Shown here: one piece after another, positions 14,782 to 38,915 of the stretch
Layout: every line of letters begins with the position of its first letter
Position numbering within the stretch: the first letter of the stretch is position 1
Assembly (NCBI GenBank): GCA_030390025.1
Contig: CM059432.1
Location: 17,796,001-17,860,000 of the forward strand
DNA: 64,000 nucleotides
Reading direction: 5' to 3'
Origin: Squalus acanthias
Taxonomy: Eukaryota
The notes under the pieces: generated by a model
What the model was told of the DNA's origin: nothing
The model's input: only the letters and a program-made list of their open reading frames with translations
Database searches by the model: none
Position numbers and translations under genes: made by a program

Positions 14782-14830
14782 TACCTTATAAGGTGCTGTC
14801 AGTTTACGTCATAATGCATACCAAATATGG
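14782..14830 (+). promoter_or_regulatory. S1 proximal promoter: two CArG boxes flanking a CRE-like site
   Basis: taCCTTATAAGG 14782-14793, TTACGTCA 14804-14811, taCCAAATATGG 14819-14830. Both boxes fit CC(A/T)6GG exactly. Confidence 0.65.
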
Positions 14831-14972
14831 TTGTTCATACACTACATGGCAGTACTATGTCATTCAACAATCGCGGTCCTAGGCATTAAAAGCTGCCTAC
14901 GGGAGCAAATATTCAATTGAAAATCTCAAATCAGTGAGATAGTATACAAGTCGGTTTGGAAATCAAGGAGTC

Positions 14973-15239
14973 ATGACCAAGTCAAGATATCGCAACAGAC
15001 GCAGTCGTCCACGCAAACGATATGGAAAACGGCTGCGGAAAACAAGGTGTCGAAGAAGAGGAAGGCGGATTAGCCGCAGACCTCGCCATACAACTTACAG
15101 GAGAAGAGTAAGGAAGATTGTGCATCTAAAACGCCGCAGTAGACCGCGAGATGAAATTGATAATTTGAAAGTAAAGAACAACAGACGTCTTAATGAATCG
15201 CTTAAGCAGCATAGAATGCCCATGAGGGTACCTGTCTGA
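14973..15239 (+). CDS. Spermatid-specific basic nuclear (intermediate/transition) protein S1 orthologue, 88 aa, intronless
   Basis: Uninterrupted ORF MTKSRYRNRRSRPRKRYGKR...LNESLKQHRMPMRVPV with 30 Arg + 9 Lys. Near-identical, from memory, to Scyliorhinus canicula spermatid protein S1. Start context gtcATGa, AATAAA at 15282-15287, non-repetitive flanks. Confidence 0.93.
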   Translation: MTKSRYRNRRSRPRKRYGKRLRKTRCRRRGRRISRRPRHTTYRRRVRKIVHLKRRSRPRDEIDNLKVKNNRRLNESLKQHRMPMRVPV

Positions 15240-15259
15240 ATGCCATGTTGCTACTTAAG

Positions 15260-15310
15260 AAAAGATTATCACTTGATATTGAATAAAAAAACAAGTACTT
15301 GAGACTTGGA
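15260..15310 (+). terminator. S1 polyadenylation signal block
   Basis: agattatcacttgatattgAATAAAaaaacaagtacttgagacttgg, homologous to the S2 3' end. Confidence 0.75.
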
Positions 15311-15864
15311 AAACAAATTTGCTGTGTTCACCTTGCATTTTTCTCTTGTGTATATAGGAAGAATAGTGTGCCACTTGTCGTTATTCAGTTAAACTACACT
15401 AATGAACTTTCAGTACCTCTGAAGTTCCCCAAATTATCTCAGAAGGGTACTGATGGTGAAATTTTAATACATTTTCAAAATTTATTTACAAAGGCCCTGT
15501 ACTCTAGGAATAAAGAGATGGGGTTTAGAAATATGGTGGAGGCAGAAAGTTGGGGGTTAAATGGCCATTTCCAGTACTTAACTTGTGTTCTTATGTAAAC
15601 TTAGACTTAGTAGTGAGAATGAGTTGGAGGAAGAAGCCGTATCTTAGAAAATAAATTAACCACAAGCAAGACCTTTCTTGAACATGTGTGAGAACTAATT
15701 GATCCAATATGCTGATCCATTAAGTGATACATCATGGGGGTTGGGGAACTAAAACTTTAGGGAAAGAACAGAGCAAGCCACCCCCCAGGAAACTATAGCA
15801 CATTGCCAAGCAACAGGTTACAGAGTGGCATCATTGGAGAGACAACAGCAACAACTTGCATTTA

Positions 15865-16455
15865 TCTTGTTTATTAATTCTCGGGAGGTGGGCATCGCTA
15901 GCAAAGCCAGTATTTATTGCCCATCCCTAGGTGCCTTTGAGAAGGTGGTAGAAAGCCATTCTCCTTGATTCGCTGCAGTCCATGTGAAGGTGCTCCCACA
16001 GTGCTGTTAGGTAGCGAGTTCCAAGATTTTGACCCAGCGACGATGAAGGACTTGGACATATATTGCCGTATGTGTCCAAGTCGGGATGGTGTGTGACTTG
16101 GAGGGGAACTTGGAGGTGATTGGGGTTCCCATGCACCTGTTGCTCTTGTCCTTCTAGGTGGTAGAGTTTGTGGGTTTGGGAGGTGATGCTGAAGAAGCCT
16201 TGACAAGTTACTATAGATAGTACACCCTGTGGTATAGGGAGTAGATGTTTAGGCTGTAGATGTTTAGGCTAGTGGATGAGGTGCATGGACTGCTTCATTA
16301 TCTGCAAATGGAGCTAAACACTGCAATCATCAGTGAACAACCCCACTTCTTACCGTATGATGGAGGGAAGGTCATTGATGAAGCAGCTCAAGAGAGTTGT
16401 GCCTAGAACGTTGCCCTGAGGAACTCCTGCAGTGGTGTCCTGGGGCTGAGATGTT
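15865..16455 (-). mobile_element. CR1/L2-group LINE fragments (second family)
   Basis: GVPQGNVLG...FINDLPS RT motif and KSWNSLP C-terminus on the minus strand. Tail gggatgggcaataaa. Related pieces at 1-40 and 46465-46990. Confidence 0.75.
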
Positions 16456-16459
16456 TGGC

Positions 16460-17060
16460 CTTTAGCACATTTAACATAGTTAAATGTTCCAAGGCATTTC
16501 ACAGGAGCATAATCAGACAAAAATTGACACTGAGCCAAAGAAAGAGACAGGACAGGTGACCAAAATCTTGGTCAAAGCGATAGGTTTTAAGGAGCATCTT
16601 AAAGGAAGAGAGAGAGGTGGAGAGGTTTAGGGAGGGAATTCCAGAGCTTAGACCATTGAAGGCATTGCCACCAATGGTGGGGTGAAGGAAATGGGGGTTG
16701 CACAAGAGGCCAGAGTTGGAGGAATGCAGAATTCTCAAAGGGTTGTATGGCTGGAGGAGGTTACATAGATAGGGAGAGGCGAGGCCATAGAGGGATTTGA
16801 ACACAAGGATGAGAATTTTGAAATCGAGGCGTTGGTGGATTCGGAGCCAATGCAGATCAGCAAGCGCAAGGGTGATGGGTGAGTGGGACTTGGTGCGAGT
16901 TGGGATATGGACAGAAGAGTTTTGGATGAGCTTAAGTTTATGGAGGGTGTAAGATGGGAGGCTGGCCAGGAGATCATTGGAATAGTCAAGTCTGAAGGTA
17001 GCAAAAGCATGGATGAGGGTTTCAGCAGCAGTTGGGCTGAGGTAGGGGCGGAGACGGGTG
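16460..17060 (-). mobile_element. L2 LINE 3' portion
   Basis: AAETLIHAFATFRLDYSN...LHWL in ORF 16499-17233. Confidence 0.9.
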
Positions 17061-17089
17061 CTATTACAGTGCAGTGCGGAGACAGGTGC

Positions 17090-17382
17090 TTTTACTGAGA
17101 GAGTGCTGCACTGTCGAAGGTGCCGTATTTCGGATGAGACATTAAGCCCGTCTGCTCTCTCAGGTGGACGTAAAAGATCCCATGACACTATTTCAAAGGA
17201 GAGCAGGGGAGTTATCCCTGATTTCCTGACCAATATTTATAGATCAATCAACATTATCATATCAGCTTATCTGGTCATTATCACATTGCTGTTTTGTGGG
17301 ACCATGTGCAAATTAGCTGCCGTGTTTCCTATATTACAACAGTGACTAAACTTCAAAAGTACTTCATTGGCTGTAAAGCGCT
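17090..17382 (+). mobile_element. SacSINE1-like SINE, partial
   Basis: Reverse complement of the core of 3352-3812. Confidence 0.8.
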
Positions 17383-17384
17383 TT

Positions 17385-18380
17385 GAGTCATAGAATGGTT
17401 ACAGCACAGAAGGAGGCCATTCGTCCCGTCGAGCCCGTGCCGGCTCTCTGCAAGAGCATTTCAGCTAGTCCCACTCCCCCGCCCTTTCCCTGGATCCCTG
17501 CAAATTTTTCCTTCAGGTATTTATCCAATTCCCTTTTGAAAGCCACATTTGAGTCTGCCTCCACCACCCTTTCAGGCAGTGCATTCCAGATCCTAACCAC
17601 TCGCTGCGTAAAAAAGTTTTTCCTCATGTCGCCTTTGGTTCTTTTGCCAATCACCTGAAATCTGTGTCCTCTGGTTCTCGACCATTGCACCAATGGGAAC
17701 AGTTTCTCTCTATCTACTCTGTCTAGACCCATCATGATTTTGAACACCTCTATCAAATCTCCTCTCAACCTTCTCTGCTCGAAGGAGAACAACTCCAGCT
17801 TCTCTAGTCTATCCACGTAACTGAAGTCCCTCATCCCTGGAACCATTCTCGTAAATCTTATCTGTACCCTCTCTAAGGCCTTCACATCCTTCCTAAAGTG
17901 TGGTGCCGAGATTTGAACACAGTACTCCAGTTGAGGCCGAACCAGTATTTTATAAAGTTTCATCATAACTTCCTTGCTTTTGTAACTCTATGCCTCTATT
18001 TATGAAGCCCAGGATCCCGTATGCTTTTTTAACCACTTTCTCAACCTGCCCTGCCACCTTCAACGATTTGTGCACATATACCCCCAGGTCTCTCTGTTCA
18101 TGCACTCCTTTGGATTTGTACCCTTTAGTTTATATTGCCTCTCCTCGTTCTTCCTACCAAAATGTATCACTTCGCACTTTTCTGCGTTAAATTTCATCTG
18201 CCACATGTCAGCCCATTCCACCAGCCTGTCTATGTCCTCTTGAAGTCTATCACTATCCTCCTCACTGTTCACTATACTTCCAAGCTTTGTGTCATCTGCA
18301 AATTTTGAAATTGTGCCCTGTACTTCCAAGTCCAAGTCATTAATATATATCAAGAAAAGCAGTGATCCTAGTACCGACCC
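17385..18380 (-). mobile_element. CR1 LINE 3' 1 kb
   Basis: FLIYINDL, KFADDTK, RPQLEYC and NFFTQRVVRIWNALP in ORFs 18060-18455 and 17388-17966. Confidence 0.92.
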
Positions 18381-19444
18381 CGAAACTAACAACTGCTGAT
18401 ATTGAACCTGGGACCCTAGACACTGCTGATATTCATTCATTTCCTTCACATTCATTCAATCTTTCAAGCCACTCCACTTGGGATGTCCTGAGGAAATATA
18501 AGTCTTTTTTGATACAGAGGTGAAAGTGGACGGTCTTTGTGATGGAGAGGATATGGGGTTGGAAGGTCAGCTCAGGGTCAAATAGGGTGCCAAGGTTGCG
18601 AACAGTCTGGTTCAGCCCGAGACCGTGGCCAAGGAGGGGAATGGAATCTGTGGCTAGGGAACAGAGTTTGTGATGGGGGCCCCAGACAAATGGCTTGTCA
18701 GGTTATCTTGGAATAAGTCACATTGAGCCAACATTGAGGAAACCATGTACTGAGCATGCTCATAAACATTTGCATTGTGACCTCATGTGGGAAACATTGG
18801 CAAGGCCACTTTTATTGTCCTTTTTTTCTCACCTGAGTGGTTTACTCGGAACTTCAGAAGACATTAAGGAGTCAACCACAGGTGTAGGCCAGATTTTGTA
18901 GGTTCCCTTTGTCCCTGAACAACATAATGCGTCAGTTTTTATGACAAACTGACAGCTATCATGGGCATGACATTACTGAATTTAGTTTCACAATTTGATG
19001 AGATTTAACATCACGACTTCTGAGTTACTAGAACAGGTCCATACCCACTACACTACCATCAGTTAATGATGATGGGTGGCTACACATTGACTTTCTGTTC
19101 CCACCAGTAGAAAGCTTTAGGACCTGTATTATAGAAACTAGTTGATTCGTCCCCCACTTTGAAAGGTGCTGTGCAACTGCCCAGCTTCTAAAACTAGGCT
19201 CTGTAGCATTTATAAGAAAGGATAAGTACATTTTGAAGCAGTTTTAATCATTTTTGTTAGTGTTTACTGTGTTTTACTCATTTTCCATTTTCAGCTCCTC
19301 TTATGCAGCTTGGCTGACTCCAATATTTAGAATCGTATAATCATAGAATAGTACAGTACAGAAGGAGGCCATTCAGCCCATCGGGTTTGCACCAATGGAT
19401 TGCTCTTTCGAAGAGCAATCCAGTTAGTCCCACTCCCCCGCTCT

Positions 19445-19810
19445 GAGTGTCAGCATACATGTGGAACCTAACACCCAGCTCTACCTCAGAACCACCTCTC
19501 TCGACCCCTCCACTGTCAGACTGCTTGTCCGACATCCAGCGCTGGATGGGCAGAAATTTCCTCCATCTAAATATTGGGAAGACCGAAGCCAGTGTCTTCG
19601 GTCCCCCGCCACAAACTCCGTTCCCTCGCCACCGACGCCATCCCTCTCCCTGGCCACTCTGTCCGAGGCTGAACCAGACTGTTCGCAACCTTGGTGTCGT
19701 ATTTGATCCTGAGATGAGCTTCCGACCACACATCCGAGCCATCACTATGACCTCCTATTCCCATCTCCCGACTCTGCCGCCGCACCCCCCCCCCCCCCGC
19801 CTCAGCTCAT
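19445..19810 (+). mobile_element. L2 RT fragment
   Basis: CLSDIQRWMGRNFLHLNIGKTE...VRNLGVVFD. Confidence 0.85.
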
Positions 19811-20584
19811 ACGCCAGTTGTAGGACCCCAATTGCAGTTTCTAGGTACAAATGGACAGAGTGAAGTGAAAAGTTAATGAAATAAGTTTGTTTCACTGTTT
19901 TTTGGGGGGGAATTTTACTGCAATTTTCTGGGAGCTGCACTGTTGGTCAAGGGGAAGTGTGGTCGGAAGCCTTAAGGAGGCCTTGGCAATTAATTGGTAC
20001 TTCCATCCCTCTCCGCAGTATGGGTGTATTATTTGCAATCCCTTTACACTGGGCATATTTGGAGGAAGAGAAGCAGAAGAAAGAAGAGGCAACTTAGGAC
20101 GACTGAGAGGCCAGACATGATTAGGAGGTGGAAGGAATCTACTTGGCCATTGATTTATCGGCACTGCAGCACTTTTCTGGGCCGCACTGAAGATCCGTGG
20201 AGGCTATGGTTCCCTAAACGAGTGGTCTAGTAGTCGGCTGCAGAAAGACAACACTCATTCACCTTAAATTTGTTTGCCGCGGGGTCTTTCTGATGTCCGC
20301 AATATCGTTCAGTCTGTTGTACATAGCTGCCTCAAACAGGTGACTCATACATTGCTTAAAAGAGCTAACCAATCAAGTTCCCCTTGGAGTAACAGGTTTG
20401 AGCCCTGGGCATTTTCAGACTTCCCCAAAGTTCGGGGTAGTCAATATCACTCACGTAGCCTTTCAGAATCTTCCTCAAGTATGTGCTCCCGATATGAACA
20501 TCAATGTCTAAAATTGGCCACTAATTCCTTCCACGACACCATTCCCCTTGTCTATGCATTATAGACAGGCACCTCTGCAATTAA

Positions 20585-20767
20585 CACAATAGCAAAATAC
20601 TGTGGATGCTGGAAATCTGAAATAACAACAGAAAATGCTAGAAGCACTCAGCAGGCCAGGCAGCATCCGTGGAGAGATGAAGGGTCACAGACCTGAAATG
20701 TTAACTCTGTTTCTCTCTCCACGGATGCTGCCTGACCTGCTGAGTGCATCCAGCATTTTCTGTTGTT
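20585..20767. mobile_element. Penelope (family 2) inverted pLTR remnant
   Basis: Inverted arms of the gatgctgcctgacctgctgag repeat. Flanking duplication acctctgcaattaa 20571-20584 and acctatgcaattaa 20768-20781. Confidence 0.8.
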
Positions 20768-20848
20768 ACCTATGCAATTAAACGCTTCAAGCTTACAGAG
20801 TGATGCGTGCAGATAAGTTTTCTTGGTAAAGTTCTGTGTCTAATCACA

Positions 20849-21240
20849 GGGTATGATAGTGTAGTGGGTATGTTACTGGGCTACCAATCCAGTTGTCCTG
20901 GACTGGACTAATAATCCACAGAATGTGAGTTCAAATCGCCACCATGGTAGTTTGAGAATTTGAATTCTGTTTAAGAAATGTGGAAATAAAAAGGTAGTAT
21001 CAGTAAAAAGTGACCACGAAGCTTGGCGTGAAAACTCAACTGGTTGACTAATGTCCTTTAGGAAAGGAAGCCTGCTATCCTCATCTGGTCTGGCCTATAA
21101 GTGACTCCAGTCACACACCAACATGGTTGATTCTTAACTGCCCTCTTACGTGGCCTAGCAGTCACTCTGTTGTATCACCATCTTCTACTAGGGATGGGCA
21201 ATAAATGCCAGCCTTGCCAGTGATGCCCATATCTCAAGAA
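20849..21240 (+). mobile_element. tRNA-derived SINE with CR1/L2-group tail
   Basis: A-box-like tagtgtagtggg, B-box gagttcaaatc, tail gggatgggcaataaatgccagcc. Minus-strand relatives near 18800-19060 and 39880-40180. Confidence 0.7.
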
Positions 21241-21319
21241 GGTTGTTTGATGTGCCGGACTATCTATTCTGGTGCCTCATCTCAGTGTAATTCCATAGAC
21301 AGGAGACTAGGAGAAGGGT

Positions 21320-21411
21320 CTCCACGGATGCTGCCTGACCTGCTGAGTGCTTCCCTGTGCATTTTCTGTTATTATTTCAGATTTCCAGCATCCGCAGTAT
21401 TTTGTTATTGT
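21320..21411 (+). mobile_element. Penelope (family 2) pLTR tail fragment
   Basis: Flanked by a perfect 14-bp duplication actaggagaagggt at 21306-21319 and 21412-21425. Confidence 0.85.
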
Positions 21412-21429
21412 ACTAGGAGAAGGGTGCCA

Positions 21430-23030
21430 GCTGTGTATCTGGGCGAGGTTCCTGGGATTCAGATGATACTCTGGGGGTACTTGTCAACTGCCATCTTGTC
21501 CAAGCTCAGGTTGGATTGTGGGAGAGAATGTCGGAACATTTGGGCAGTGAGGTCCACTGCCTCACTGCCCCGACTGGAAATTTCCCTCTCGCTGCCACTG
21601 CTGGGACCACCACTAGCTCCTCATTCCCGACCCACTGCATGAAAATATCGATGGGCAGGCAGGGCTTGGTCCACCACAGAACCACAATTACCATCGGCAT
21701 GCAGAAGGTGGCCCTGGGAAGTGGCGGTGGAGGGAGAGGCCTGTAGTGACAGGGGAATGGGCAGGTCACCAGAATCGCTGAGCAATTAACTCATCCCTTG
21801 AGGTGGCCTTCCTTCTTATCCTGCTTTCTCATCTTCATCCTGGCTTTCCTCGTCTGATGAGCACTGCTGCTGTTACTGTGCCTCCTCAAAATGCAGGCCT
21901 CTCTGTATGGCAGGGTTACGCAGGGTGCAGCAACACCACTGTGACGCGGGAGACACTTTGTGACGCATATTGTAGGGAGCCCCCAGGCCTGTCCAGACAC
22001 CTGAACCTCTGTTGCAGAAGCACTATAGTGTGCCTAGGAATCATGCTGGTAGATTTGATTATATCTGTGTTGCTCAGGTGTGCTGGGTTTGCGGAGGGGG
22101 TGTCATGACCTATGTGGGTAGGGGGTATCCAGCAGCTATCCTGTCACATTAGTGGAAGGGTTGAGTGTTGGGGTGGGGGGGGGGGGCGGGGGTGCGGGAT
22201 AGGGATGGTTGAGTGTTGCACATTGTGACAGCTGCCTGGGTATCTTGTACAACTTGCATGATCTTGTTTCTGTGATCAGAGACTAGCCGGACATTAATGG
22301 AGTGGCAGCCCTTCCTATTCACGAATGCTGCTAGCTGGTGTCATGGTGCCCTGATGTCAACACATTCTGGACGTGAGGGAAGCCAGCCACTGCTGTAAAT
22401 CCCGAGCTCTCTCCTGTTGACGTTGAGGTCGATGGGGAAGGTGATGTACCGGTTAGCCCTGCAGCTGTGTACTGCATGTGGGACATGGACCCTGCAGCAG
22501 GGGCTGGAAAGAACCAGTGGCAAAGAAGATAAAGGCTGTGGTGACTTCGTGGCCACTGGCAAAGCATGGTCCCCTGGCACAGCAGGTCCTGTTGCAGGAG
22601 GCTGCAGAGGTCTGCGACAGCCTGCCTGGAGAAGCGCAGCCTTTCTGAGGCATTGATCTTCAGATAGCTCGAAGCAAGTGACTTGGCCTGTGCACCCTGT
22701 GTGCTTGTCTAGGGCCTCCTGCCAGCAGCCCCCTCACCCACTGTCTTCTAATAGGCTCAGCTGCTGAGCGTGCTTGTTGCTGAGGCTGCCACGCCTGCTC
22801 CTCTTCCTTCCACCAACAGCTCCTCCATCCAAATTAAACTGGCGACAATGGCACCCACAATAAGCAGATAGAGGTTACTGAGGTTAAGTAAGGCAAAGCA
22901 AGTGAGAAAGAAGCGATCCGGAAGCTGGAAACTCTCCTGGGAATCCGAATAGCACAATGGCACACAGATCCTCTGATCCAATTACCTGCAGGTGAGTGCC
23001 CCTTTAAATACTGAGAGACCAATCCCACTA
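21430..23030 (-). mobile_element. Degenerate PIF/Harbinger element
   Basis: Minus strand 22500-22650 reads RLRFSRQAVADLCSLLQQDL...LPVA...FFATGSFQ (HARBI1-like N-terminus) across frameshifts. Confidence 0.65.
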
Positions 23031-23099
23031 GGTTTTACTGGTGGGTTGTTCACTGCACCCTGACACCATTCCTCTTAAATTCAACCCTAGGAACTTCCC

Positions 23100-23380
23100 T
23101 TAAAAGGTGGCCGTCCAAAGTCCAGGGTGGACACGGCCCATGGGTGGTGCTCGCTCTGGCTTGCCCGCCTCTCTTCTGTGGCTTTGTCTGTGACCGGGTG
23201 GTCCTGGAGAAGGAGCAGGCGGTGTCCGCCGGTACGCTCGAGGCCTTCTGCGAGCGGTGACTGGAATGCTTGGTCAACAGAGGACATAATATTATGATTC
23301 AATTTGTTAAGTTTCCTCTGTCATTTTTTTTAATGATTTGGGTTTTATTAGTTGTGTCCCTCTAAAAAGGGGGCACTTTT
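23100..23380 (+). mobile_element. Tx1-clade LINE 3' end
   Basis: PLFCGFVCDRVVLEKEQAVSAGTLEAFCER resembles Tx1 ORF2 C-termini as I recall them. Confidence 0.55.
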
Positions 23381-23827
23381 GTTAAGATTCTTTTGGGACA
23401 ACCCAGTGTCTCCTTAAGGGTTTCAATTAAAAGATTAGAGCTGTTAGTTTCGTGCTGATAAAAATAGCAACCTCACCTCCTCTTTGACCTATTCCATCCT
23501 TCCTGAATCCCTTGTAGCCTTTTAGGTGAATTACTGTCCCATCACTTTCATCTAGCCAAGCAACTTGAACCCAGCTCTCCTCAGCTGTAGGTGGTTGGTG
23601 GTTGCTGTTGCTAGTGGTTGGGAGTGTGTGGGTTGTAGGAGTATTGACTAGACCATGGTCAAGCAAAGCAAAGCAAGAGGAGGAACTTCCCTTAAGATAG
23701 TTGCTCGAAGTCAACAACTTTAATTTGAATACTGGATGTTCAATGAGGAACTGAGAAAGAGAAAATGTGCTCCACAAGGGAGGAAGCCCCAATAACCCAT
23801 GAGTGCTAAAATCACAAGTCAGTTATG

Positions 23828-24538
23828 GGGCCAAAAATTCGGCCCTTGCCGGGTGAGTACGCACTGTGTACTCACCCGTAAGGCCTCCTGAAGTGCCGGT
23901 TTCCTGCATGCATTGCGCATGCGCGGCGGTAGAGGCTGCGCGCACGCAGCAAACTTAGGGTTTTTTTCAGGTTTCTCTGGGAGGGTAAGTATTGAAGAAC
24001 CTGCGCTTTTAAAAAGGAGGCACAGGACCTGTTTTCAACAAGGTAAGTGGTTAATTAATTATAATTTAAAAAAAATGTCAACAGGTTTATCTTTTTTAGA
24101 TACTTTAAAGAAAGGTAAGTTTATTTTTAGCACTGTTAAAAAGTATTTTAATTTTTTCAAAAATTTAAATTTTTGTTTAAAGTAGTTAATTTATTTAACT
24201 TATAGTTATTTTATAAATGTGATGGTTTTTAAAAAAAATTATTTTAAGTTTAGCTGTTCTTTTGGGGCCGATTTCAATTCATAGATTTGACAGGTCTTCC
24301 TGTCAAATCTATGAATGAAAGATGGTCTGCTGCCATTGGCTCTCCATGGCCCACGTGATCCCAGGGGACGCATCGCACTAACTACGCCCCTGGGACACGC
24401 AAGCACTGCGCGCCGGCACTTGGAGCAGGCCCAGGAGCTGAAGTTCCCGTGAGCCCAGAGGTCAACGGCAGGCGCGGTAGGTAAGTGCGTGCGCGATCCT
24501 TACCCCCGCGGCAAGCCGGAGAGGTGAATTTCAGGGCC
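23828..24538. mobile_element. Harbinger-type MITE
   Basis: TIRs gggccaaaaattc and gaatttcagggcc; 3-bp TSD ATG at 23825-23827 and 24539-24541. Confidence 0.75.
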
Positions 24539-24673
24539 ATGATCTTGTGCTTTAAGCCTTTCCCTCATTTTAACTGCCGAAAACAAGGTTATGGGGCCAC
24601 AGGCCTGGTTAATATATATAAGTTATGGTTGGTCTATTAGTTGAGAGGGGTGACATTTAATGTGTTACTCAAT

Positions 24674-25959: not shown

Positions 25960-26093
25960 TACCTTATAAGGACATAACACCCGTGGTTTATCATGTGAGA
26001 CACATATGTACATCAGTACCTTAAAAGGTAATGCAGTGTCACAAAACAAATTTCAAGTTACATTGTGTAACTTACGCATTGAAAGCTATATAA
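25960..26093 (+). promoter_or_regulatory. S2 proximal promoter: two CArG boxes, a palindrome and a TATA box
   Basis: taCCTTATAAGG 25960-25971, taCCTTAAAAGG 26017-26028, AAGTTACA-ttg-TGTAACTT 26055-26073, TATATAA 26087-26093. Confidence 0.7.
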
Positions 26094-26164
26094 GTAACAG
26101 ATTGACAACCATTTAGTAGAAAAAAAAAGTAGTCTGTTGATAAAGCAGAGGTGAAAGCAAAACC

Positions 26165-26416
26165 ATGGCCAAGTCGAGATACCGTCCGAGACAGAATCGT
26201 GCCCGCAAACGGAATGCTAAAGCAAGGCGAGCGAGAAAGGTGAGGGGCAGAAGAACAAGACCCCAGCGTCGACCTCGCTATGTACCCAACAAAAGAAGAG
26301 CGCCAAAGATTATGAAGCTGAAGTTAGATAATGATGTGGATAATACTTTAAAAGCAAAAAACAAAAGTCTTAATGAAGCGTTGAAGCACCGACTATCCTT
26401 GAGGAAACATGTGTGA
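26165..26416 (+). CDS. Spermatid-specific basic nuclear protein S2 orthologue, 83 aa, intronless
   Basis: ORF MAKSRYRPRQNRARKR...KIMKLKLDNDVDNTLKAKNKSLNEALKHRLSLRKHV with 20 Arg + 13 Lys. C-terminal half matches S. canicula S2 as I recall it and aligns with the 14973 protein. Kozak accATGg, TATATAA 26087-26093, AATAAA 26464-26469. Confidence 0.92.
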   Translation: MAKSRYRPRQNRARKRNAKARRARKVRGRRTRPQRRPRYVPNKRRAPKIMKLKLDNDVDNTLKAKNKSLNEALKHRLSLRKHV

Positions 26417-26442
26417 TTGGCAATTGTGGCAAGTTGTGTCAA

Positions 26443-26495
26443 AGAGATTATCAATTGAATACGAATAAAATAAAACAAGTACCAGAGACTTGCAA
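26443..26495 (+). terminator. S2 polyadenylation signal block
   Basis: agattatcaattgaatacgAATAAAataaaacaagtaccagagacttgc. Confidence 0.75.
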
Positions 26496-27845
26496 ACTAA
26501 TCTAATTCCATTGTGTACCTCTCGTTTTTATTCCTTGATAAAAGTATACAGATGAAGTTAATGCAAGACTTGTGTGAATGTTGGATGGTTTATATTGCTT
26601 GATTTCATAATCATTCACCCCCACGATGCATTGTGAGATCAATAGGTGTTACATATTCAATTTGATGCCAGAAGTATGGATGCAAATTGTGCTGGTAGTA
26701 CCTTATGAGGGAGCAGCACTTCATTGCCCCTAAGTGTACCACTCAAAATCTTCAAAATGCAAAGTAATGATCCAGAAAACAATCCATCCTCAACAAGCCA
26801 AGACCAAGCATGCATTCATACTATTTACAGCAGTACCTTATAAGAGAGCCCCCCCCCCCCCCCTTCATTGATTCTAATTACTTTTAAATATGGGCATCAG
26901 CTTTAAATAGTAATTTAAAGGAAAGATAAGTAAAGGGGTTCCCCTATTTAATAGAAAAAGGCATATGTAATTTTGGAGCCACTCAACCAAAGCTTAAGAT
27001 ATTTTAAAAGCACCTAATTTTTCTTCTTTCTCTTCCGTGCCAATAGCCTTATGAGGCAATCCATTTCTTCCACTCTGAGTTGTGTCCATAACAAAGACCC
27101 ATTTTCGCTCCCAAGATACAAATACAGGTACCCGACTGGATGTCAACCTGAGACACAGTGGGGCTAAATGGAGTGGCGCTCAAACCCATAACCTTACGAC
27201 TGAGAGGCAGGAATGCTACCATTGAGCCAAGGCTCACCCCTCCCTAATTTTCACAATCTGACAAATTTGACAAAATTAAGGGGCTGACAACATGTATCCA
27301 TTTCAAAATCCTTGTCTTCATGTATAAGTCCCTCTGTGTCATTACCCTCCCTAACCTGACTCTGCAATATCCCCCAGCCATATAATCCTCTTCCAAATGC
27401 TCCATTCCTCTGACTGTAGCCTTCTGTGTCTCCCCCTTCCTTTGCCCCCTCCATCGGCCACACAGCTTTCAGCTGGCTCAGTTCTATCCTTTAGAACTCC
27501 CACCCTGAACCTCTCCACCGCTCCCATCCACCTTTAAAACCTCCACAAGACCGGTGAAACACCTTGAGATGTTTCTTTATGTTAAATGATGCTACACATA
27601 GTTGCTGTTCTTGGAAGCTTCTTCACGTGACAAATGGTCAGCTTGTTTCCTTAGATATGTGTCATGCCTACTGTAAGAGTCACCAGACATGCATGAGGAA
27701 AATGGAGTCTGGTGTTTAATAAGTTGCCCTACTACCTGTGAAAACCTGGCTGGGTTGACAGGTTGTTCATTGCAAAAACTGTTTCCCTGTGGGTTTGCTT
27801 TGATAATTATGATCAATATCTGATCATCTTTGTACTAGCCTAGAT

Positions 27846-28336: not shown

Positions 28337-28799
28337 TCAAAGGGAAGGGAGAAGTATAACTGGAGATGGAGTGCTACAGGAAGTTCTTCCCTCATGTCAA
28401 GATTACAGATGAATCACCCAAGGTTCTTGAAGAGAATTTCTCAGGAGCCTTGATTTTTTTTCATTATTTTGGAACTTTTTAAAGTAGCAGCGAAAAATCA
28501 AGGTTGATCTATTTTTGCTTGTGTGTTAATAAGAATTAATTAGTAGCCTTTAGCCTGAATCATATGGCCTGTCAGTGTGTTATTTTCAACTGATTTCGAA
28601 GAGATCAAATATACATAGCTTGCATACATCCAATGGGCAAATAGTTAATTGTTTGCTCAAAGCACTGCTCCCCAGCATAAAACCACAGTTCAGTTCATAG
28701 GGAGCAAGGGCTTGTCAGCGGAAGCAAACTTTTCCATTGGGCATGAATAAATGTGATTGAGGAGAAACCCAAATTCTAACAGTCCTGGATGAACCGCAA

Positions 28800-29330
28800 T
28801 TTCCTCCAGTTAAACACTGGGGAGACCAAAGCCGACGTCTTCAGTCCCGCCACAAACATCGTACCCTCGCCAACAATTCATGCTGCTCCCAGACACATAG
28901 GGAGATATTAAGACAGGTGACCAAAAGACCACGGTCTCAGGTTGAACCAGACTGTTCACAACCTCGGCGTCCCATTTGACCCCAAATTGAGCTTCCAACT
29001 CCATAATCTCTCCAGCACAAAGACTGCCTACTTCCACGCCCGTCTCCACCGCTGCCTTTCGCATCTACTGCTAAAACCCTCCCCCTTGCCTTTGTCATCT
29101 TCAGACTCAACTATCATTGCCAAACTCCCATCCGCCATTCTCCATAAACTTCAGCTCATCCAAAACCTACTGCCCGTATCCTATACCGCATCAAGTCCCA
29201 TTCACCCATCACCCTTGCTGATCTACATTTGCTCCCGGTCCCACAACACTTCAAATTTAAAACTCTCACCCTCCTGTTTAAATCGCTTTAAGGACTCACC
29301 TCTCCCTATCTCTGTAACCTTCGCAGCCCA
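28800..29330 (+). mobile_element. L2 RT fragment, degenerate
   Basis: NQTVHNLGVPFDPKLSF motif; homologous to the other L2 copies. Confidence 0.8.
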
Positions 29331-29422
29331 GTATTCAGTGACCTCCTCCTCAATAGGGCTAGGATGGCTATGATTTGCCCCATCGGATACTAATACCCGA
29401 TTGGATGTTAACCGGAGATGAG

Positions 29423-30468
29423 GGCCGCGATTTTACCGGTGCTCAGAGGGCGGGTTTGGAGGCGGGTCAGAGGTTAAATTCGTTTTGATTGACGGCAGGT
29501 CCCGAACCCGCTGTCAACCCGCCTCCAAACAACTTTCCCAAGTGTCGGGTCCCCGATTTGCGAATGGAACCGACACCTAGCGGTGGGAAACGGATTAAAG
29601 GCAATTATCTGCCTATTACCAGGTACTTGTGAGCAGTTTTTAGGGCCTTTTGCGATTTTCCAGCTTTTGCAACAGGTTTCACGACGTCCGGACAACACGC
29701 CAGGTAAGTGTGGCGTGTTGTGAGTCTGGTCTGATGTTTGTGAAAAGATGACAGCTGCAGAAGTGGTGTCAAGGATGCAATGTTGCACAAGGTGAGTTTC
29801 AGAGCAAGAAAATGTTGGTTACTGCATTTTTAATACATATACAGATTTTTTTAGCTTACAAGTTTCTAAATCCAACTGTATGTCCAGTGCCACCTCATTG
29901 GGAGAACCTCTCTCACCAGTGACGGATCGCTTCTGTCATCTCACCTGCACCTGCATCTATTCCAGCAACATCGGAGCCAATGAAACAATCAGACCTAGTG
30001 AGATGGCGAAGTAATAAAGTAGATAGAGAGGGTTGGGTGGAGGTGCAAGGTAAGTTGATGTCCTGGGGAGGTCTCTTCCACCCTTAGAAGGGAAGAGAAC
30101 CTCCCTGCGTACTGTGACTCCCTTCATAAGCATATGGAGGGAGTCATTGGAGAGCCTGGGTGCAAGAGTTCACCTTTGTGCATTGATTGTCAGTGTTTGC
30201 AGCACCTCAATGCTGTCAAACACTGAAAAATCAACTGTCAAAATAAAATTGTGCATGGTCCCTTTAAGGAAACCGGCAGATGACGCGTCATCAAATGATG
30301 TCATCAGACCGGCTTCCTGTTAATTGGCCGGCAAACCCGCAGGGCGGGCTCAACAAGGCCAATCAAGGGAAAATCCCGATTACAGAGCGGAGGCAGCTGG
30401 GGGCGGGACCGGAACCCGGAAACCACCTGACCCGCCCCCATCCCGACACGGAGGAGAAAATCGTGGCC
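29423..30468. mobile_element. Harbinger-type non-autonomous DNA transposon
   Basis: TIRs ggccgcgatttt and aaaatcgtggcc; TSD GAG at 29420-29422 and 30469-30471; GC-rich subterminal repeats. Confidence 0.75.
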
Positions 30469-32851
30469 GAGAACTCCAGTCTCTGCTTGCGGGGGGGAGG
30501 TGTCTGGAGTGGGCTTGAACCCATAAATATCCGACTCAGAAACAGTAATGCTACTATTGACCCAATGCCTATTCCTTCTCCGACAACTCTGCATTCCTCC
30601 AACTCTGGCCTCATGCATTTCCTCATTCCTTTCGTCCCACCAGTGCCCACCATTGCCTTCAGCCATCTAGAGATGGATAGGCTCTGGAATTCCCTCCCTG
30701 AACCTCTCTGACTCTCCACCACCCTCTCCTCCTTAAAACCCACTTATTTGACCACGCTATTAGTTACCCTTCCTAACATCTCCTCAATTTGTCTCGCCAT
30801 CGATTTTTGTCTGATTACATCTTAGCAAAGTGTCTGGGGACATTTTTCTATGTGTTATATAAATGTAAGTTGCTGTTGTAGCAATTATCTAAAAATCCTT
30901 ACTCCCGATAATTGTGGACAACAGCTTAACCCATTTGAAATGGATGTGTTAATGACAAGAGAAGACCGTGTGAATTTAAATTCATCCCCTATTATTCGAG
31001 GTTGTAGTGCTGCAATTGCCTATGCATCCAGCAGAAGGAGCACGATCACGGAGTTAATACCATTCATTTAATAAGGCCCTGGCTGAGCTGTAAGTGATCA
31101 TTCTAACCACGGCACACCCATACTCCCTGGCCCACCGATGACCACTCCCACGCCTGCTCACTCTCCCTCATTCATCTGCCCTTGTCCCAGCTTGCGCTGC
31201 TCCCAGTCCACCTATTGTCTTCTTTGGGAGATCGGCAATTTGTTTTTAAAGTGCATGCAGCACTATTTAAAGAGACTGTTTAAAAACAAATTGCCGGTTT
31301 CCCAGTGAAAACAGTAAATGGAGGGCCACCAGGAGGGGCACAGGGCAGGTGAAAGCAAACAGGACTGGGACCAAAAGCATGTGGGGCAGCTTATAAGTTT
31401 GAGGCTTTCCTCTGAGGCTGGTATGTCACAGGGGCATAAGACTGTACAAGGGATGGATAAGGCAGATTGGAAGAGGGGTCATGGGAGAATAGGAAGGATT
31501 ATGGGTCTGGAAGCAATAAGGGGCAGGTTAGGGTGAAGAGCAGTAGAAATGGGGATTGGGCAGTGGAGAGCAGGTGAAAGGGGGTGCCTGGAGGGGTACG
31601 ATGGATGAAAGTTAACAGGGAAGTGAGAGGAAGGGTTAGGGGTTGAGCCAAATGGGCTCTTAAAAAGTAGAGGGGCAGTGGGCAGCCGAAGTGAGAGGGG
31701 ACACGATGGAAGCCAGGGAGAGTAGGGATGGAAGTGGGTGTGGAGAGTATGGGAAATGAGCTACTGAGAGATATAGGCCATAATTCTCTGAACTTGCAAC
31801 TACAAAATGTGGTCTGTAGCCTTCAGCAGCTCACTTCCACACCATGCCACTTCACCCATAACCCAACAGAGCCAGAAGCAAAAAAAAGAGTTAGGGAAAG
31901 TGAAGTAGAACAGAAAAGTGTGCGAGAGAGAGAGAGACAGACAGACAGAGAATGTGAGCAAGCCCAGGCCGAGACCCAGTCGCCACTCCAAAGCTGGCCT
32001 GTGGCTCTAGCTAGACCTATTCTCCCCACCCACAATCCTAAAACAGCCCTGCAGCCCTCACCACATCCCTTCTAACGAGCAAGCCACCACTCACAACCAC
32101 AGAGGCACCCTTTGACCTGGCCCAATCCTTCCCCCACCAAACCATTCCATCCAAAAGGACATAAGAGGCAAAGCGAAAGAGAGTTGTAGAACAGGAAGAA
32201 ACGAGAGCGTATCAGGCTTAGGCAGGGAGGTATCATTGGTAAAAGGCATGAAATTATGCAGCATACACCACCACCTTCTGCACAAGGATGCTCAGGACAA
32301 CCCACTCATAACTCCTTCCATGACGTGGACCTGCATGCTCTACATTTCTGTCTTCACAAACCCTCGGAGTGCATCTTCACATACAGGGGTTTGCAAATTT
32401 GATGCAGCCCTTGTTCTCAGCCTTCTGTGTTTGTAGGTGAAGGCAGCACATAACAGGCGGCAAATGTCTACAACTGGAGGGAGGCCAGTAATCTTACGTG
32501 GTCTGACTCCATTTGAGGTGTTTGCTCTCCAAGCGCAATGCTGTTACTTGGAGGAGGAGGCTGGAGTTAGGGAAGTAGCTTCAGCTCAGTGTTAGTCTAA
32601 CATTTATTCTTCCTCGACGCTACAAACAATTTACTCACACAAGTACTGGTTCGCAAGCTTGCTCCATGTCAGCTGTTTGGGAAAGACTACTATCCAATAA
32701 GTTGTTCTGAAGATGTGCTTCCAACACTTTTCTCTTTCTGTCTCTGCAGGCATGGGAGAGGAAGCTGTTGCAAGGTACTCACGACAGGTACTCACTCATC
32801 ACCTCACACTGCATCTCACTCTGCAAGATTTAGCTGACTAGTTTGAGGGCA

Positions 32852-33016
32852 AAAATGAGAAGTCGCACAACACCAGGTTATAGTCCAACAGTTTTATTTA
32901 AAATTACGAGCTTTCGGAGCTGTTGCCCCTTCGTCAGGTAAAGGTACAATGAGGGAATCTATTACACAGTATATATCTCATTTTTGTCCACCCCAGTCCA
33001 ACACCGGCATCTCCGC
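32852..33016. mobile_element. Miniature Penelope insertion (same family as 8970-10052) with hammerhead on minus strand 32904-32941
   Basis: Inverted pLTR piece plus the forward tail gtccaccccagtccaacaccggcatctccgc. 12-bp TSD agtttgagggca at 32840-32851 and 33017-33028. Confidence 0.88.
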
Positions 33017-34239
33017 AGTTTGAGGGCAGCATACAGGGCGATGCACAGAGCACAAGAGAGCAAGTGGGGAAGGGGCAGGAAGCAGATGGCCAGAGAGCGA
33101 GGCTGCCTCCATCCACAGCTGATGAGGCCAGGGGCCAGCTTTAAAAAGAAGGATGCTCTTGGAGTATGAGACGTTGTTGAAATCACTGGGGAATGTGCAT
33201 GACCGCTAGTGTGGACAATTCTCACAACTTGCATGTGTTGGGTGCTCATGCATGGTACTGAAATCTTGTAGGCAACCTAGGAATGAGCTGCAGCCCCTCA
33301 GACAGGCCTTCAATTGTAATGTCACCTTCTCATTGAGAAATCTTCTCACTGAGGCGAGAGATTGCTATGGGTTTGTCGCTGCCTGTTGATCAGTGGGCAC
33401 AGTGGCATGGAGGCTTCCATCAAGGCCTGGGCAGAGCTGGCAATGGGTGATGTTGCTGTCCATCTCAATGGCAACACCTCCACCCAAGTCTCAACCATTC
33501 CCACCCAATGACTTCACGGGAGCCAGAAAGCAGGCAGGGCCAGGTTGCTCCCGCAGCATCGGAACGGCAGCAGGCTGAAACGGACCCATCTGGAAGCCAT
33601 GGTCATAGAAACAATTGACAGGCCACCTGGATGCTAGGAACCTCTCACAGACACTCAGCTGGCAGCCACATCAAAGTTCAAACCATAGGGACACCACTGG
33701 GAAGAAATACTGCAATAAGTAATCAAACCCCAACCTACACCTACTCATAGGAAGGAGAAACACTGCCATACAGGCATTAGGTAGAGAAACATGCAGCACT
33801 CTCCTGTTACAGCTCCTCCAAATGGTGCCTCTTTAAAAGACAATGTTGTGCCGAATGAAACAGCCTATAATGATTCTGCAAGCTTTGGCTGGATTGTACT
33901 GCATGAAGCCCCCCTGATTTGTCAAGGCACCAGGAGTGTTGCTAAAGCGTGGCAATGGTGTTCTTTTTCTCGTGATGACCCTGGTGGAGGCTTCGGCATC
34001 ACATCTGTGGTTGGCTGATGTCAGGGAGGCTGCGGAGGCACCATGAGCTAAGGCAGCAACATGCCGAGGATCAGCAAAGATGATGGTATGACGGACTGAC
34101 ATCAAATGGAAGCACCTTGAGTGCGGTGTGGTAATTTGACACTACTTTGCTTGATGACGTACAGATGATCACACACAACTGCACAATTACAGAGTAGAAG
34201 ACCTTCATAGAAGAGGCACTCCAATTATCAGGAGCACAA

Positions 34240-34500
34240 AGAAGAACATAAGAAATAGGAGCAGGAGTAGGCCATTTGACTCTTCGAGCCTGCTCCACCA
34301 TTCAATGGATCATAGCTGATCTTCTACCTCAACTCCACCTTCCTGCAATATCCCCATATCCCTTGCGTCCCTTATTATCCAAATATACTCAATGACTGAG
34401 CCTCCATAGCCCTTCCAGAATTCCAAAGATTCACAACCCTTTGAGTGAAGAAATTTCTCCTCATCTCAGTCCTAAATGGTCAACCCCTTATTCTGAGACT
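34240..34500 (-). mobile_element. CR1 3' end
   Basis: aagaacataagaaataggagcaggagtaggcc tail, also present at 8080 and 45757. Confidence 0.85.
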
Positions 34501-36274
34501 GTCGACCCCTTATTCTGACACTGAGAATAAGTGTGCCATCTATTACCCCCTGGACTTTGGGGGATTCCGTCGTTCTGAAGAACTCTGGGGCTTGGGCCTG
34601 TTGGTCCAATTGGCAAACGACGTATCAGTCATTTGCTGAATGCACCAATGCACTGATGACTAACTTATCTTGGAAGTTTTGCCAGTGGCTACCTGAAAAC
34701 ACGGTTGTTACATTGACTGTCTTTGGCAGTGCCGTGTCAGCCCTGGAGTGTGTACCTGCAGATCCTCCGGCAGAAGGTCACAGAGCATCTGGACTACCTC
34801 CTGCTTAAGCCTGTGAAGCCTTTGCTTCTCTGTTAGGTCCAGAGGAATCCTGCAGAGCCAATAGATTTTTCTGTTTGGATAAAGGTGATTACAACAGTGA
34901 CTACACTTCAAAAGTACTTCGTTGGCTCTAAAGCACTTTGGGATGTCCTGAAGTCATGAAAGGCGCTATATAAATGCAAGTTCTTTCTTTTTATAAAGGT
35001 GGGTAAGTGACCTTCTCCTCCAATGATGTTTCAGCACCCTACAAGCCAAGGGTGCTTCCTGTACATCTCTTCTCTTCCTCCAAATAATACATGTAACAGT
35101 GTATTTCAAATGGGACCTCCATTCTGTCACGGGGTGGGGAGTGGCCTTCAGCAACTCTTCAGCTGGCCAACATGTTGAGCACAGTGAAACCCCTCGATAA
35201 CCTTTTACAAAGCAAAGCAATTTGACGTTACTTGATCCCCATTTAAATGGAATTTAAATGCCTTCTTGAGGCACAACACCAGACCTGTAACTGGCAGCAG
35301 GGCTGGCACAATCAGGGCTGCGACCCGTCATAACAGGTTTCCCTTCATTTTTCCTCAGCTTTGCACCCCTGAAAATAATCGTACTTGGAGCCCACAGAAA
35401 AGGAAAATCAGTACCTATATATAACAGAATGTTAGTTAGCTATTATTCGACTTGTGTGAGGTATGGCATACTAAACACTTACGAGGACTATTTATCAGCG
35501 TGATAACTGGTAATTGGAGCAGTAAGGGAAGGTATATTGGTATGATGAGGTCAAGGATGTTGGCCAGCTAATGTCGCAGAAGAACAAGGAGACCATGGTC
35601 TAGCACAGAGTTAGATAAATGCTGGTGTGGAACAGCGTGCACGGAAAGCGCCAGGGCACTCTAGTGCAGGAACACTTACGCAAGGTTTGGCTGAGTGAAC
35701 TAAATTTGCACAATGCAAGCAATACTTCCATCAGTAGCAACCTCAGATGTTAGAACATTTAAGATTCTTTAGAACCCAGGACCATCAGTTGAAATTTAAG
35801 GGGGGAAAAAATGCTGGTCTAACACCCCAATGAAAATGTTCAAAGTTAGAGACTCACAGACCGCAGGCTACAATCAGAAAAGAAGCTGCTTCAAAATCAA
35901 TATAAACCAGAAGTCTTTAAACTGAAGAGAATATAAACCAAGATGATTCCACCTTCTGACTTAGCAAACCTGAGTCAGTTCGTCAGAGACTCAGAAATGT
36001 TGTTGGAAATCATGTACAATAGTGCTTCTATGCTATTACATCATATAGCAAGTCTATCCTCTTCCAGAAATGGATGGGAAATTGGTTGACGATACAAGTG
36101 AATTGCTAGAGGATCTGCAAAGGAAACTGTATCAAAACAGTAATTCTAATGAGTATTGAGAATCTAATGCCGTGAGAAGGAAGGATACACGATGATGTGG
36201 TAAGGTTAGAAGGCTATACACAAAATGAGCCCAGTGCAAGAAAAACTATAATACAAAAAGAAAATAAACAAAAA

Positions 36275-38150
36275 GGAAATACTGCAGATGCTGGAAATCT
36301 GAAATAAAAACAGAAAATGCTGGAGAAACTCAGCAGGTCAGGCAGCATCTGTGAAGAGAGAAACAGAGTTAACGTTTCAGGTCGATGACCTTTCGTCAGA
36401 ACTGGAGAAAAGCAGGAAATAGAACAAGTGTAGGGGCTGGGAAAGGGGGGAGGGGATGAAAGAACAAAAGGGAATGTCTGTGATAGGATAGAAGGCTGGA
36501 GAGGTTAAGAGACATTGAGATATTCAAGGCAAAAGAAGATGGTAATGGGACAGGTTAAGAAACAAAGGATGGCTCTAGATGAAGTGTAAATTGCGCTGGC
36601 AGAATGAAAGACAGCTGCCATGTGGGAGAGAAGAAAAGAAAACGCAAACAAAAGGTGTGGATAAAAAAATATATATATGATAGGGGCCGAGGTTATGATC
36701 TGAAATTGTTGAACTCTATGTTGAGTCCAGAAGGCTGTAAAGTGCCTAATCGAAAGATGAGGTGCTGTTCCTCGAGCTTACGTTGAGCTTCAGTGGAACA
36801 ATGCAAGAGGCCGAGGACGGTGAGGTCTGAGTGGGAGTGGAGCGGAGAATTAAAGTGACAGGCGACCGGAAGCTCGGGGTCCCCCTTACGGACTGAATGG
36901 AGGTGTTCCGCAAAGTGGTCACCCAATCTGTGTTTGGTCTCCCCAATGTAGAGGAGACCGCATCATGAGCAGCGAATACAGTATACTAAGTTGCAAGAAG
37001 TACAAGTAAATTGCTGTTTCACCTGGAAGGGGTGTTTGGGGCCCTGGACAGTGGGAAGGGGGGGGAGGGATAAGGGCATGTGTTGCATCTCCTGCACTTG
37101 CACAGGAAGGTGCCAGGCGAAGGGGAAGTGGTGTTGGGGGTGATAGAGGAGAGGACCAGGGTGTCACGGAGGGAGCGGTCCCTTTGGAATGCTGAAAGGG
37201 GAGGTGAGGGGAAGATGTGTTTGGTGGTGGGATCACGCTGGAGGTGGCGGAAATGGCGGAGGATGATCTGTTGAATGTGGAGGCTGGTGAGGTGAAAGGT
37301 GAGGACAAGGGGAACCCTATCGTGGTTCCGGGAGGGAGGGGCAGGGGTGAGGGCAGAAGTGCGGGAGATAGAACGGACACGGTCAAGGGCCATGTCAACC
37401 ACAGTAGAGGGGAATCCTCGGTTGAGGAAAAAGGAAGACATGTCGGAAGCACTGGTATGGAAGGTGGCATCGTCGGAGCAGATGCGGCGGAGACGGAGAA
37501 ACTGGGAGAAGGGAATAGAGTCCTTACAGGAGGCGGGGTGGGAGGAAGTGTAGTCCAGGTAGCTGTGCGAGTCAGTGGGCTGGTAGTGAATGTTTGTCAA
37601 TAACCTATCCCCAGAGATGGAGATGGAGAAGTCGAGGAAGGGAAGGGAAGAGTCAGAGATGGACCATGTGAAGGTGAGGGAAGGGTGGAAATTGGAAGCA
37701 AAGTGGATGAAATTATCTAGTTCAGGGCAAGAGCAGGAAACAGCACCGATACAGTCATCAATGTACCGGAAAAAGAGGTGAGGGAGGGGACCTGAGTAGG
37801 ACTGGAACAAAGAGTGTTCCACATATCCCACGAAAAGGCAGGCATAGCTAGGACCCATGCAGGTTCCCATAGCAACACCTTTGATTTGGAGGAAGTGAGC
37901 GGAGTCAAAGGAGAAGTTGTTCAATGTGAGAACAAGTTCAGCCAGGCGGAGGAGGGTGGTGGTGGATGGGGACTGGTCGGGCCTCTGTTCAAGGAAGAAG
38001 CGGAGCGCCCTCAGGCCATGCTGGTGGGGGATGGAGGTGTAGAGGGATTGGACGTCCATAGTGAAAAGGAGGCGGTTGGGGCCAGGAAACTGGAAACTGT
38101 TAAAGTGGCGTCGGAAGAGTCGCGGATGTAGGTGGGAAGAGACTGGACCT
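36275..38150 (-). mobile_element. Penelope-like retroelement (family 2): RT, GIY-YIG endonuclease and pLTR, 5'-truncated
   Basis: ORF 37019-38059 has DVQSLYT, GVAMG and RYIDD; ORF 36693-36926 has RKLEEQHLIFRLGTLQPSGLN; pLTR at 36275-36405. Confidence 0.93.
36367..36403 (-). ncRNA. Minimal hammerhead ribozyme motif
   Basis: agtt-CTGACGA-a-aggtc(atc)gacct-GAAA-cg-TT-aact on the minus strand; palindromic AACGTT. Confidence 0.8.
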
Positions 38151-38767
38151 ATGTTTACTGTAGGGTAGGGAGGGACATATTTTCATTTTTTACTTTGTTT
38201 TATGAGCTCAAACAAATTCAGGATTTCAAACCAAGTTATTTACATTAGGTCGGCCATGGTTTGTGCATCATAGATACAATGACAAAAAGAAAGAGGTTAT
38301 TACCAGCAAGGACTTAATGAACATAAATATGAGGGAGGGAGGAGGGAATATTTATTATTTTAGAAATGGCATTAGATCTCAGATTTATTGGATTAGAGAA
38401 GACGGGGAGCAAGATTGGATGGATCAAAGTGAACATGGTTAGAGAAAGCAAGGAAGTAAGACTAGATGGATCAGAGTCAATACAGATAAATAATGTAAGA
38501 GGAGCATGATTAGATGGATTAAAGTCAACACGGTTAGAGAGGGCGAGGGAGTCACCACAATGCGAGCAGCTGAATTATAACAGATTTGTCATTAAAAATC
38601 TCTTAAATCTAATGAAGTGACAAAGAATTAGAATACGATTGAATGTATTTTTTGATAATCAGTTTTCTATATCGTCAGCAATGTGCAATACACAAAGGAA
38701 TACGCGTGATAGAACGATACGTTGTAAAGCAGTGATCTCATACCATAGGAAATACATCATAATATAC

Positions 38768-38870
38768 ATGTATATCAGTACCTTAAAAGGCAAGAAAATG
38801 TCCCAAAATGATTATGACTATTGTGCGCATCACACCCTATGTAATACACCCCTCAAAACATTTATAAAAA
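38768..38870 (+). promoter_or_regulatory. Third-paralogue promoter: CArG box and TATA box
   Basis: atgtatatcagtaCCTTAAAAGGcaagaaaatgtcccaaaa aligns with S2 atgtacatcagtaCCTTAAAAGGtaatgcagtgtcacaaaa. TTTATAAAAA at 38861-38870. Confidence 0.65.
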
Positions 38871-38915
38871 TGAATCCTCATCATTTTAAAGCAGGGCTTG
38901 AACACAAACGGAAGC

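Follow-up and report, generated by a model that had tools for sequence, protein, structure and literature searches.

The 64-kb stretch of Squalus acanthias DNA analysed here (the window) hosts a cluster of spermatid basic-protein genes, in the promoters of which the CArG box, CC(A/T)6GG, recurs. All motif backgrounds were taken from this window, and all features are on the forward strand unless otherwise indicated. Two of the genes are single open reading frames (ORFs), and their products are presumably intermediate proteins of elongating spermatids. S1 (14973..15239) encodes spermatid-specific protein S1, 88 amino acids long and 44% arginine plus lysine, and S2 (26165..26416) encodes spermatid-specific protein S2, 83 amino acids long. 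In UniRef S1 corresponds to SSS1_SCYCA (E 2.5e-40) and matches also five proteins of Callorhinchus milii (6/6 candidates), and S2 corresponds to SSS2_SCYCA (E 6.8e-22; 1/3 candidates). The two proteins are orthologous to S1 and S2 of the catshark Scyliorhinus canicula, with identities of 94% and 73%, respectively, and are 44-51% identical to each other. Linkage, promoters and a G3 paralogue were not found described for S. canicula in the literature searched by title and abstract. The third member, G3 (38916..39083), is a 55-amino acid ORF, 40% arginine plus lysine, related to S1 and S2 at the DNA level. Its start, the sequence beyond its stop and the 3' flanking DNA can be aligned with S1/S2, end and 3' untranslated region (UTR) included, with changes of frame, and it is therefore regarded as a diverged paralogue, either gene or pseudogene. 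Database searches with the G3 protein gave no homologue, matches to two long repetitive proteins having been dismissed as chance. None of the three proteins scored above the curated cut-off of Pfam profiles, and no additional S-type gene was found in the window by blastn and tblastn. Promoter distances are counted from the ATGs at 14973 (S1), 26165 (S2) and 38916 (G3).

Five TACC(A/T)6GG boxes had been listed in the earlier note, and all were found where it had placed them. The distal boxes of S1 (14782..14793) and S2 (25960..25971) share the sequence TACCTTATAAGG. S1 features a second perfect box, TACCAAATATGG (14819..14830), and proximal boxes are found in S2, TACCTTAAAAGGTA (26017..26030), and G3, TACCTTAAAAGG (38779..38790). 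The S2 proximal box is a palindrome reaching the TA flanks, and matches the motif on both strands. The boxes start at -191 and -154 in S1, at -205 and -148 in S2 and at -137 in G3, and every promoter copy hosts at least one perfect CC(A/T)6GG between -125 and -205. A sixth perfect box, CCATATATGG (14662..14671), is located at -311 from the S1 ATG and is preceded by GT; the claim that all boxes are preceded by TA holds for the five originally named, not for this one.

Measured against the window background, the extended word is in clear excess: TACC(W)6GG (W, A or T) has six matches (14782, 14819, 25960, 26017, 38779 and the opposite strand of 26017) versus 0.64 expected, a number reached in none of 100 shuffles. 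No enrichment was found window-wide for plain CC(W)6GG (10 vs 6.47 expected; 10/100 shuffles), nor for TACC(W)6GG with one mismatch (22 vs 15.96 expected; 10/100 shuffles). Six of the ten CArG boxes in the window fall within 350 bp upstream of the three ATGs, an area making up 1.6% of the window (Poisson P ~1e-10); one of the four non-promoter boxes (13047) sits in a repeat. Upon shuffling of the promoters, the observed count was matched in 0/20000 cases for S1 (three boxes), 2/20000 for S2 (two boxes) and 1.9% for G3 (one box). Among 16 palindromic families of the type XY(W)6Y'X', promoter matches were six for CC..GG, one for TT..AA and zero for the other 14. If homologous boxes are counted once, P is ~1e-8 with four lineages, and 2e-4 to 7e-4 with two lineages in 350 bp.

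The alignments show that the three paralogous promoters descend from a single ancestor with two boxes, distal and proximal, which were separated by 56-61 bp and preceded a TATA-like word. Alignment scores were 71.5 for S2/G3 (shuffle maximum 19.5) and 15 for S1/S2 (maximum 6); the S1/G3 score of 5.5 is not significant, the shuffle maximum being 7. With the boxes masked, the S1/S2 flanks are still weakly alignable, the score being reached by 3/500 shuffles. The flanks are poorly conserved, as had been claimed, but are not beyond alignment. Two ancestral box positions, distal and proximal, emerged in two MAFFT runs. At the distal position S1 and S2 carry identical boxes; the G3 homologue, TACGTTGTAAAG (38718..38729), located 61 bp ahead of the proximal box, has decayed. 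At the proximal position the boxes of S2 and G3 are identical, and the S1 counterpart is the decayed site TACACTACATGG (14838..14849). The S1 box at 14819 lies in a different register, and its homology to the S2 26017 box has been rejected, because the decayed 14838-14849 register won 10/10 forced alignments (five scoring schemes times two partners). In this register 13/21 downstream bases match S2, versus 7/21 in the alternative one, and the distal-to-proximal spacing is 56 bp in S1, 57 in S2 and 61 in G3. The perfect 14819 box, a candidate replacement site, is 19 bp from the decayed proximal site, and the corresponding place in S2 has three mismatches. Box lineages are hence at most four, and S1 and G3 have no perfect homologous box in common. 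TGTC(A/C) is found exactly 8 bp behind the proximal-position GG in all three promoters (14858-14862, 26037-26041, 38799-38803), the decayed S1 site included; the first T is altered in organism E, one of the sources of orthologous DNA considered below.

A paired module had been postulated for all three promoters. The ancestral pair is intact in S2 only; the S1 perfect pair, spaced 37 bp, is not homologous to the S2 pair, spaced 57 bp, and G3 has a single box. Paired CArG boxes are typical of muscle genes driven by myocardin/MRTF, and two perfect boxes at kept spacing are not a feature of every member of the cluster. Box pairs also differ in helical phasing (3.5, 5.3, 5.4 and 5.8 turns), and a fixed-phase model has therefore been dropped.

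Uninterrupted identity between the S1 and S2 promoters extends furthest over the distal 12-mer, and between S2 and G3 over a 17-mer that includes the proximal box, in turn part of a 41-bp block 83% identical in the two (E 6e-06). Over the aligned promoters as a whole, identity is close to that of shuffled sequence (0.67 vs 0.63; 0.66 vs 0.65). As a neutral yardstick for S1/S2, 5/12 four-fold sites and 46/83 third positions are identical, and the probability that a given 12-mer survives neutrally at 55-70% identity is 0.0008-0.014. Four different box cores all keep CC..GG. Selection appears to act on the CArG consensus, since S1 has lost the proximal box and yet features a perfect box at a distance of 19 bp and another at -311. 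The retention by every gene of a perfect box within one zone would represent site turnover under stabilising selection, regardless of whether S1 gained a site or S2 and G3 lost one. In line with the earlier note, the motif conforms to the true CArG consensus, clusters in promoters and forms a footprint between old paralogues; that selection maintains it is very probable.

Orthologous DNA has been compared for the S1 promoter alone, in four of 24 listed runs (X6, X9, X11 from organism E and X16 from organism F), at 80% likeness. The changes seen were 20/26 in X11, 19/29 in X16 and 6/8 in X6 and X9, and differences near the ends of the aligned pieces are not listed. X16 has no coverage upstream of 14783, and changes in its first ~30 aligned bases, an interval including the distal box and a CRE-like site, may be unlisted. 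X6 and X9 have the same list of eight changes each, none of the six seen falling in boxes, and their identity means that almost no power is added. The 10-bp core of the second S1 box (14819) has no listed change in 4/4 runs. In organism F its flanks are changed at 14817, 14820, 14831 and 14833, and none of the listed changes is in the core. The 14662 box is free of listed changes in X11, X9 and X6, and is not reached by X16. The TA prefix is changed at both boxes covered in organism F, to TG by A>G at 14820, and to CA by a C before 14783. As TA is also missing at 14662, the extended TACC(W)6GG fails as a kept unit. A C at 14841 in organism F gives the decayed S1 proximal site a CC-N6-GG frame. 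Upstream of the S1 promoter, at 14200-14600, a G-rich stretch, unique in appearance, contains several degenerate units resembling TCTGGGCAG, and the sequences of organisms E and F fail to align over this stretch.

Other elements are found closer to the genes. The octamer TTACGTCA (14804..14811), located between the S1 boxes at -169, matches the palindromic cyclic AMP response element (CRE) at 7/8 positions of its familiar consensus. It is unchanged in organism E, while 14801 and 14803 are changed. Its number in the window does not exceed chance significantly (4 vs 1.62 expected; 14/100 shuffles), and only S1, of the three promoters, has a CRE or near-CRE: no CGTCA is found in the 240 bp next to the ATG of S2 or G3, the nearest being a CRE half-site at -243 in G3, with none within 500 bp in S2. 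A second stretch, GCATT(A/G)AAAGCT, recurs at ~ -90 in S1 (14883-14894) and S2 (26076-26087), 11/12 positions being identical, and may be regarded as a second footprint in the two promoters. The S1 copy, GCATTAAAAGCT (14883..14894), overlaps the sole TATA-like word of S1, ATTAAAA at -88, and has no listed change in 4/4 orthologue runs. The S2 copy, GCATTGAAAGCT, is followed by the TATA-like TATATAA at -78 (26076..26093 together). G3 has the TATA-like TATAAAA (38863..38869) at -53 from its ATG.

CC(A/T)6GG is the binding site of SRF, according to the accessible part of PMC9185982, and the boxes of the shark cluster are probably a functional SRF-type element. The shark promoters share with known CArG boxes, or serum response elements (SREs), the exact consensus (six boxes) and the presence of several boxes per proximal promoter. 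They differ in the targets, which are spermatid nuclear basic-protein genes instead of muscle, cytoskeletal or immediate-early genes. According to established knowledge of the consensus, SRF dimers would bind the boxes of the S1, S2 and G3 promoters, and SRF with a co-activator would help to switch the genes on in spermatids. That the CArG boxes serve an old spermatid basic-protein gene family as a functional promoter element, most likely read by SRF and helping activation, is the best of the explanations considered, at about even odds; which factor reads them, and whether it activates or represses, is deduced from the consensus alone. Haploid spermatid genes are commonly driven by CRE and CREM. 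S1 resembles them in its CRE-like octamer, whereas S2 and G3 lack a CRE near the ATG, and the element common to the three promoters is the CArG box. At S1 a CREB/CREM-type factor seated on the CRE-like site would probably join SRF, which would be one input beside CREM and not its replacement.

The original footprinting of the SRE of the human PRM1 gene was reportedly carried out by Queralt and Oliva. In the portion of PMC4607923 that is accessible, this promoter is described as containing an SRE with an in vitro DNase I footprint. The contrast between SRF and CREM drawn in the earlier note was in this respect overstated, given the SRE in PRM1 and the CRE-like octamer between the S1 boxes. As in the shark promoters, the PRM1 SRE is near -190 of a gene for a protein that packages sperm chromatin; one element is reported there in the same accessible portion, while the shark promoters feature up to two or three boxes, with turnover of sites. 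UniRef searches gave no mammalian homologue of S1/S2, and common descent of the shark and PRM1 promoters is therefore not established. In a broader scenario, SRF would have activated the genes for sperm nuclear basic proteins since early in jawed-vertebrate history, and the shark boxes and the PRM1 SRE would go back to a single old regulatory link; beside CREM, an actin-sensing cofactor of SRF would coordinate the timing of chromatin-condensation genes with the remodelling of the cytoskeleton in spermatids. This scenario we consider unlikely. In the bull TNP1 promoter an SRF site has been predicted by software, but the sequence given in the accessible text is no CArG box (PMC8941572). The CArG-box factor CBF-A/Hnrnpab binds Prm2 mRNA, as stated in the available part of PMC3798277. 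The accessible parts of this paper and of PMC10925299, PMC11466473 and PMC9258737 add nothing on SRF at spermatid promoters, and CREM is not named in the last of these, a review. No publication on the shark S1/S2 promoters was found by title and abstract search, older subscription papers being mostly beyond reach.

Several results weigh against an activating SRF element under selection. With the boxes masked, the S1/G3 promoter alignment is not significant (67/500 shuffles). Only a single box survives in G3, possibly a pseudogene. Over the reliable ranges of the four runs, the S1 boxes have one change in 40 positions versus 2.7 expected (P=0.24), a deficit that is not significant and speaks neither for nor against constraint, and the A>G change at 14788 in organism E breaks the S1 distal consensus, leaving a G-containing CArG-like site; the other two S1 boxes have no listed change in that organism. 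Neutral simulations with identity set to 55-70% produce a 12-bp exact run somewhere in 330 bp in 10-77% of cases, and the case for selection hinges therefore on the block being a CArG box, a rare word defined beforehand. Finally, the one statement found on SRF in germ cells, an enrichment of SRF peaks at enhancers of mouse spermatogonia, does not deal with spermatids (bioRxiv 2020.03.11.987180).

The boxes could simply be passengers of the duplications, a single chance CArG pair having been inherited by three copies and being functionless now. The promoters are indeed paralogous, as the S2/G3 and S1/S2 scores indicate, two of the six ancestral positions have decayed, and the orthologue test is compatible with such a history. 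But silent sites of S1/S2 are near saturation and the distal 12-mer is nonetheless identical, S1 has two extra perfect boxes with no perfect counterpart in S2 or G3, and even two independent boxes in 350 bp would be rarely expected by chance. All this makes mere inheritance very unlikely. Alternatively, the element may be functional and read by a factor other than SRF, recognizing a word of the (AG)TACCTTA type, the fit to CArG being incidental. Data from the region past S2 are relevant to this hypothesis. The one-mismatch boxes AGTACCTTATGAGG (26697..26710) and AGTACCTTATAAGA (26832..26845), ~280 bp and ~420 bp past the S2 stop, retain the left half of the motif and break the right half, and have AGTACCTTA in common with the proximal boxes of S2 and G3; they may act as additional weak SRF sites or point to a different factor. 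AGTACCTTAW, a pattern picked after being seen, occurs four times in the window versus 0.21 expected (0/100 shuffles). Against such a word, the S1 boxes at 14821 and 14662 lack CCTTA and still have CC(W)6GG, and the TA is changed to TG at one box and to CA at the other in organism F. The core recognized by YY1, CCAT, is found in two S1-specific boxes only, which disfavours this protein as the factor. YY1 too binds CArG boxes and competes with SRF for them, as reported in the accessible part of PMC9185982. On the whole, a reader other than SRF is rather unlikely.

The competition just mentioned, and the association of SRF peaks with spermatogonial enhancers in the available part of the preprint, fit also a scheme in which SRF or YY1 provides a minor or repressive input, silencing the genes in the soma or prior to the spermatid stage, and activation is left to a CREM-type factor and the TATA-side block. 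The CRE-like site between the S1 boxes, unchanged in organism E, and the 11/12 identity of the block at -90 in S1 and S2 agree with this scheme. It is distinctly unlikely, as S2 and G3 lack a nearby CGTCA, whereas all three promoters have CArG boxes, and the CRE-like word lacks significant enrichment in the window. A last possibility is that the conserved cores are TATA boxes of upstream start sites, placed by chance in a CC..GG frame. The distal box includes TATAAG, and the TATA-like word near the S1 ATG is weak; yet three of the five boxes lack TATAA, and separate TATA-like words are present at -88, -78 and -53, which makes TATA boxes the most improbable of the explanations considered.

If SRF binds the boxes, the cluster would be a clear example, open to testing, of haploid germ-cell genes under SRF control. 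Such a role is suggested by the old PRM1 footprint, and was not found established in the accessible parts of the literature searched. The surprise is limited, because the CArG element is of a type already well known. The cluster also illustrates turnover of binding sites between paralogues in which silent sites are near saturation. Spermatogenic stages are separated by zone in the shark testis, and a stage-resolved binding study is therefore feasible.

Further observations concern the surroundings of the genes. Three one-mismatch CArG-like sites (the two at 26697-26845 and one at 27047) are found within 650 bp past the S2 stop, versus ~1 per kb in the window, and possibly represent a 3' enhancer. 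The 3' UTRs of S1 (15240-15340) and S2 (26417-26525) are identical at 72/99 aligned bases, above silent sites, over a tract covering the poly(A)-signal block. Translational-control elements occur in protamine mRNAs, and the conserved block is a possible element of this kind. G3 carries ATTAAA where S1 and S2 have the poly(A) signal, in addition to the TATAAAA at -53 and the kept CArG box. The region 38916-39290 may thus encode an undescribed lysine-rich shark sperm nuclear protein; the frame changes relative to S2 would also fit a pseudogene. The strong positive GC skew around G3 (36000-42000) derives from decayed minus-strand frames of reverse transcriptase, similar by eye to those of long interspersed nuclear elements (LINEs) or Penelope elements, and the remaining long frames of the window look, again by eye, repeat-derived. 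The chimaera proteins are nearer to S1 (66-75%) than S2 is (51%); hence either the duplication predates the split of chimaeras, or S2 is fast-evolving, the comparison being unrooted. Callorhinchus milii has five uncharacterised S1-like proteins (P0003-P0007) and no S2-like match was returned from it, which suggests an independent expansion in chimaeras.

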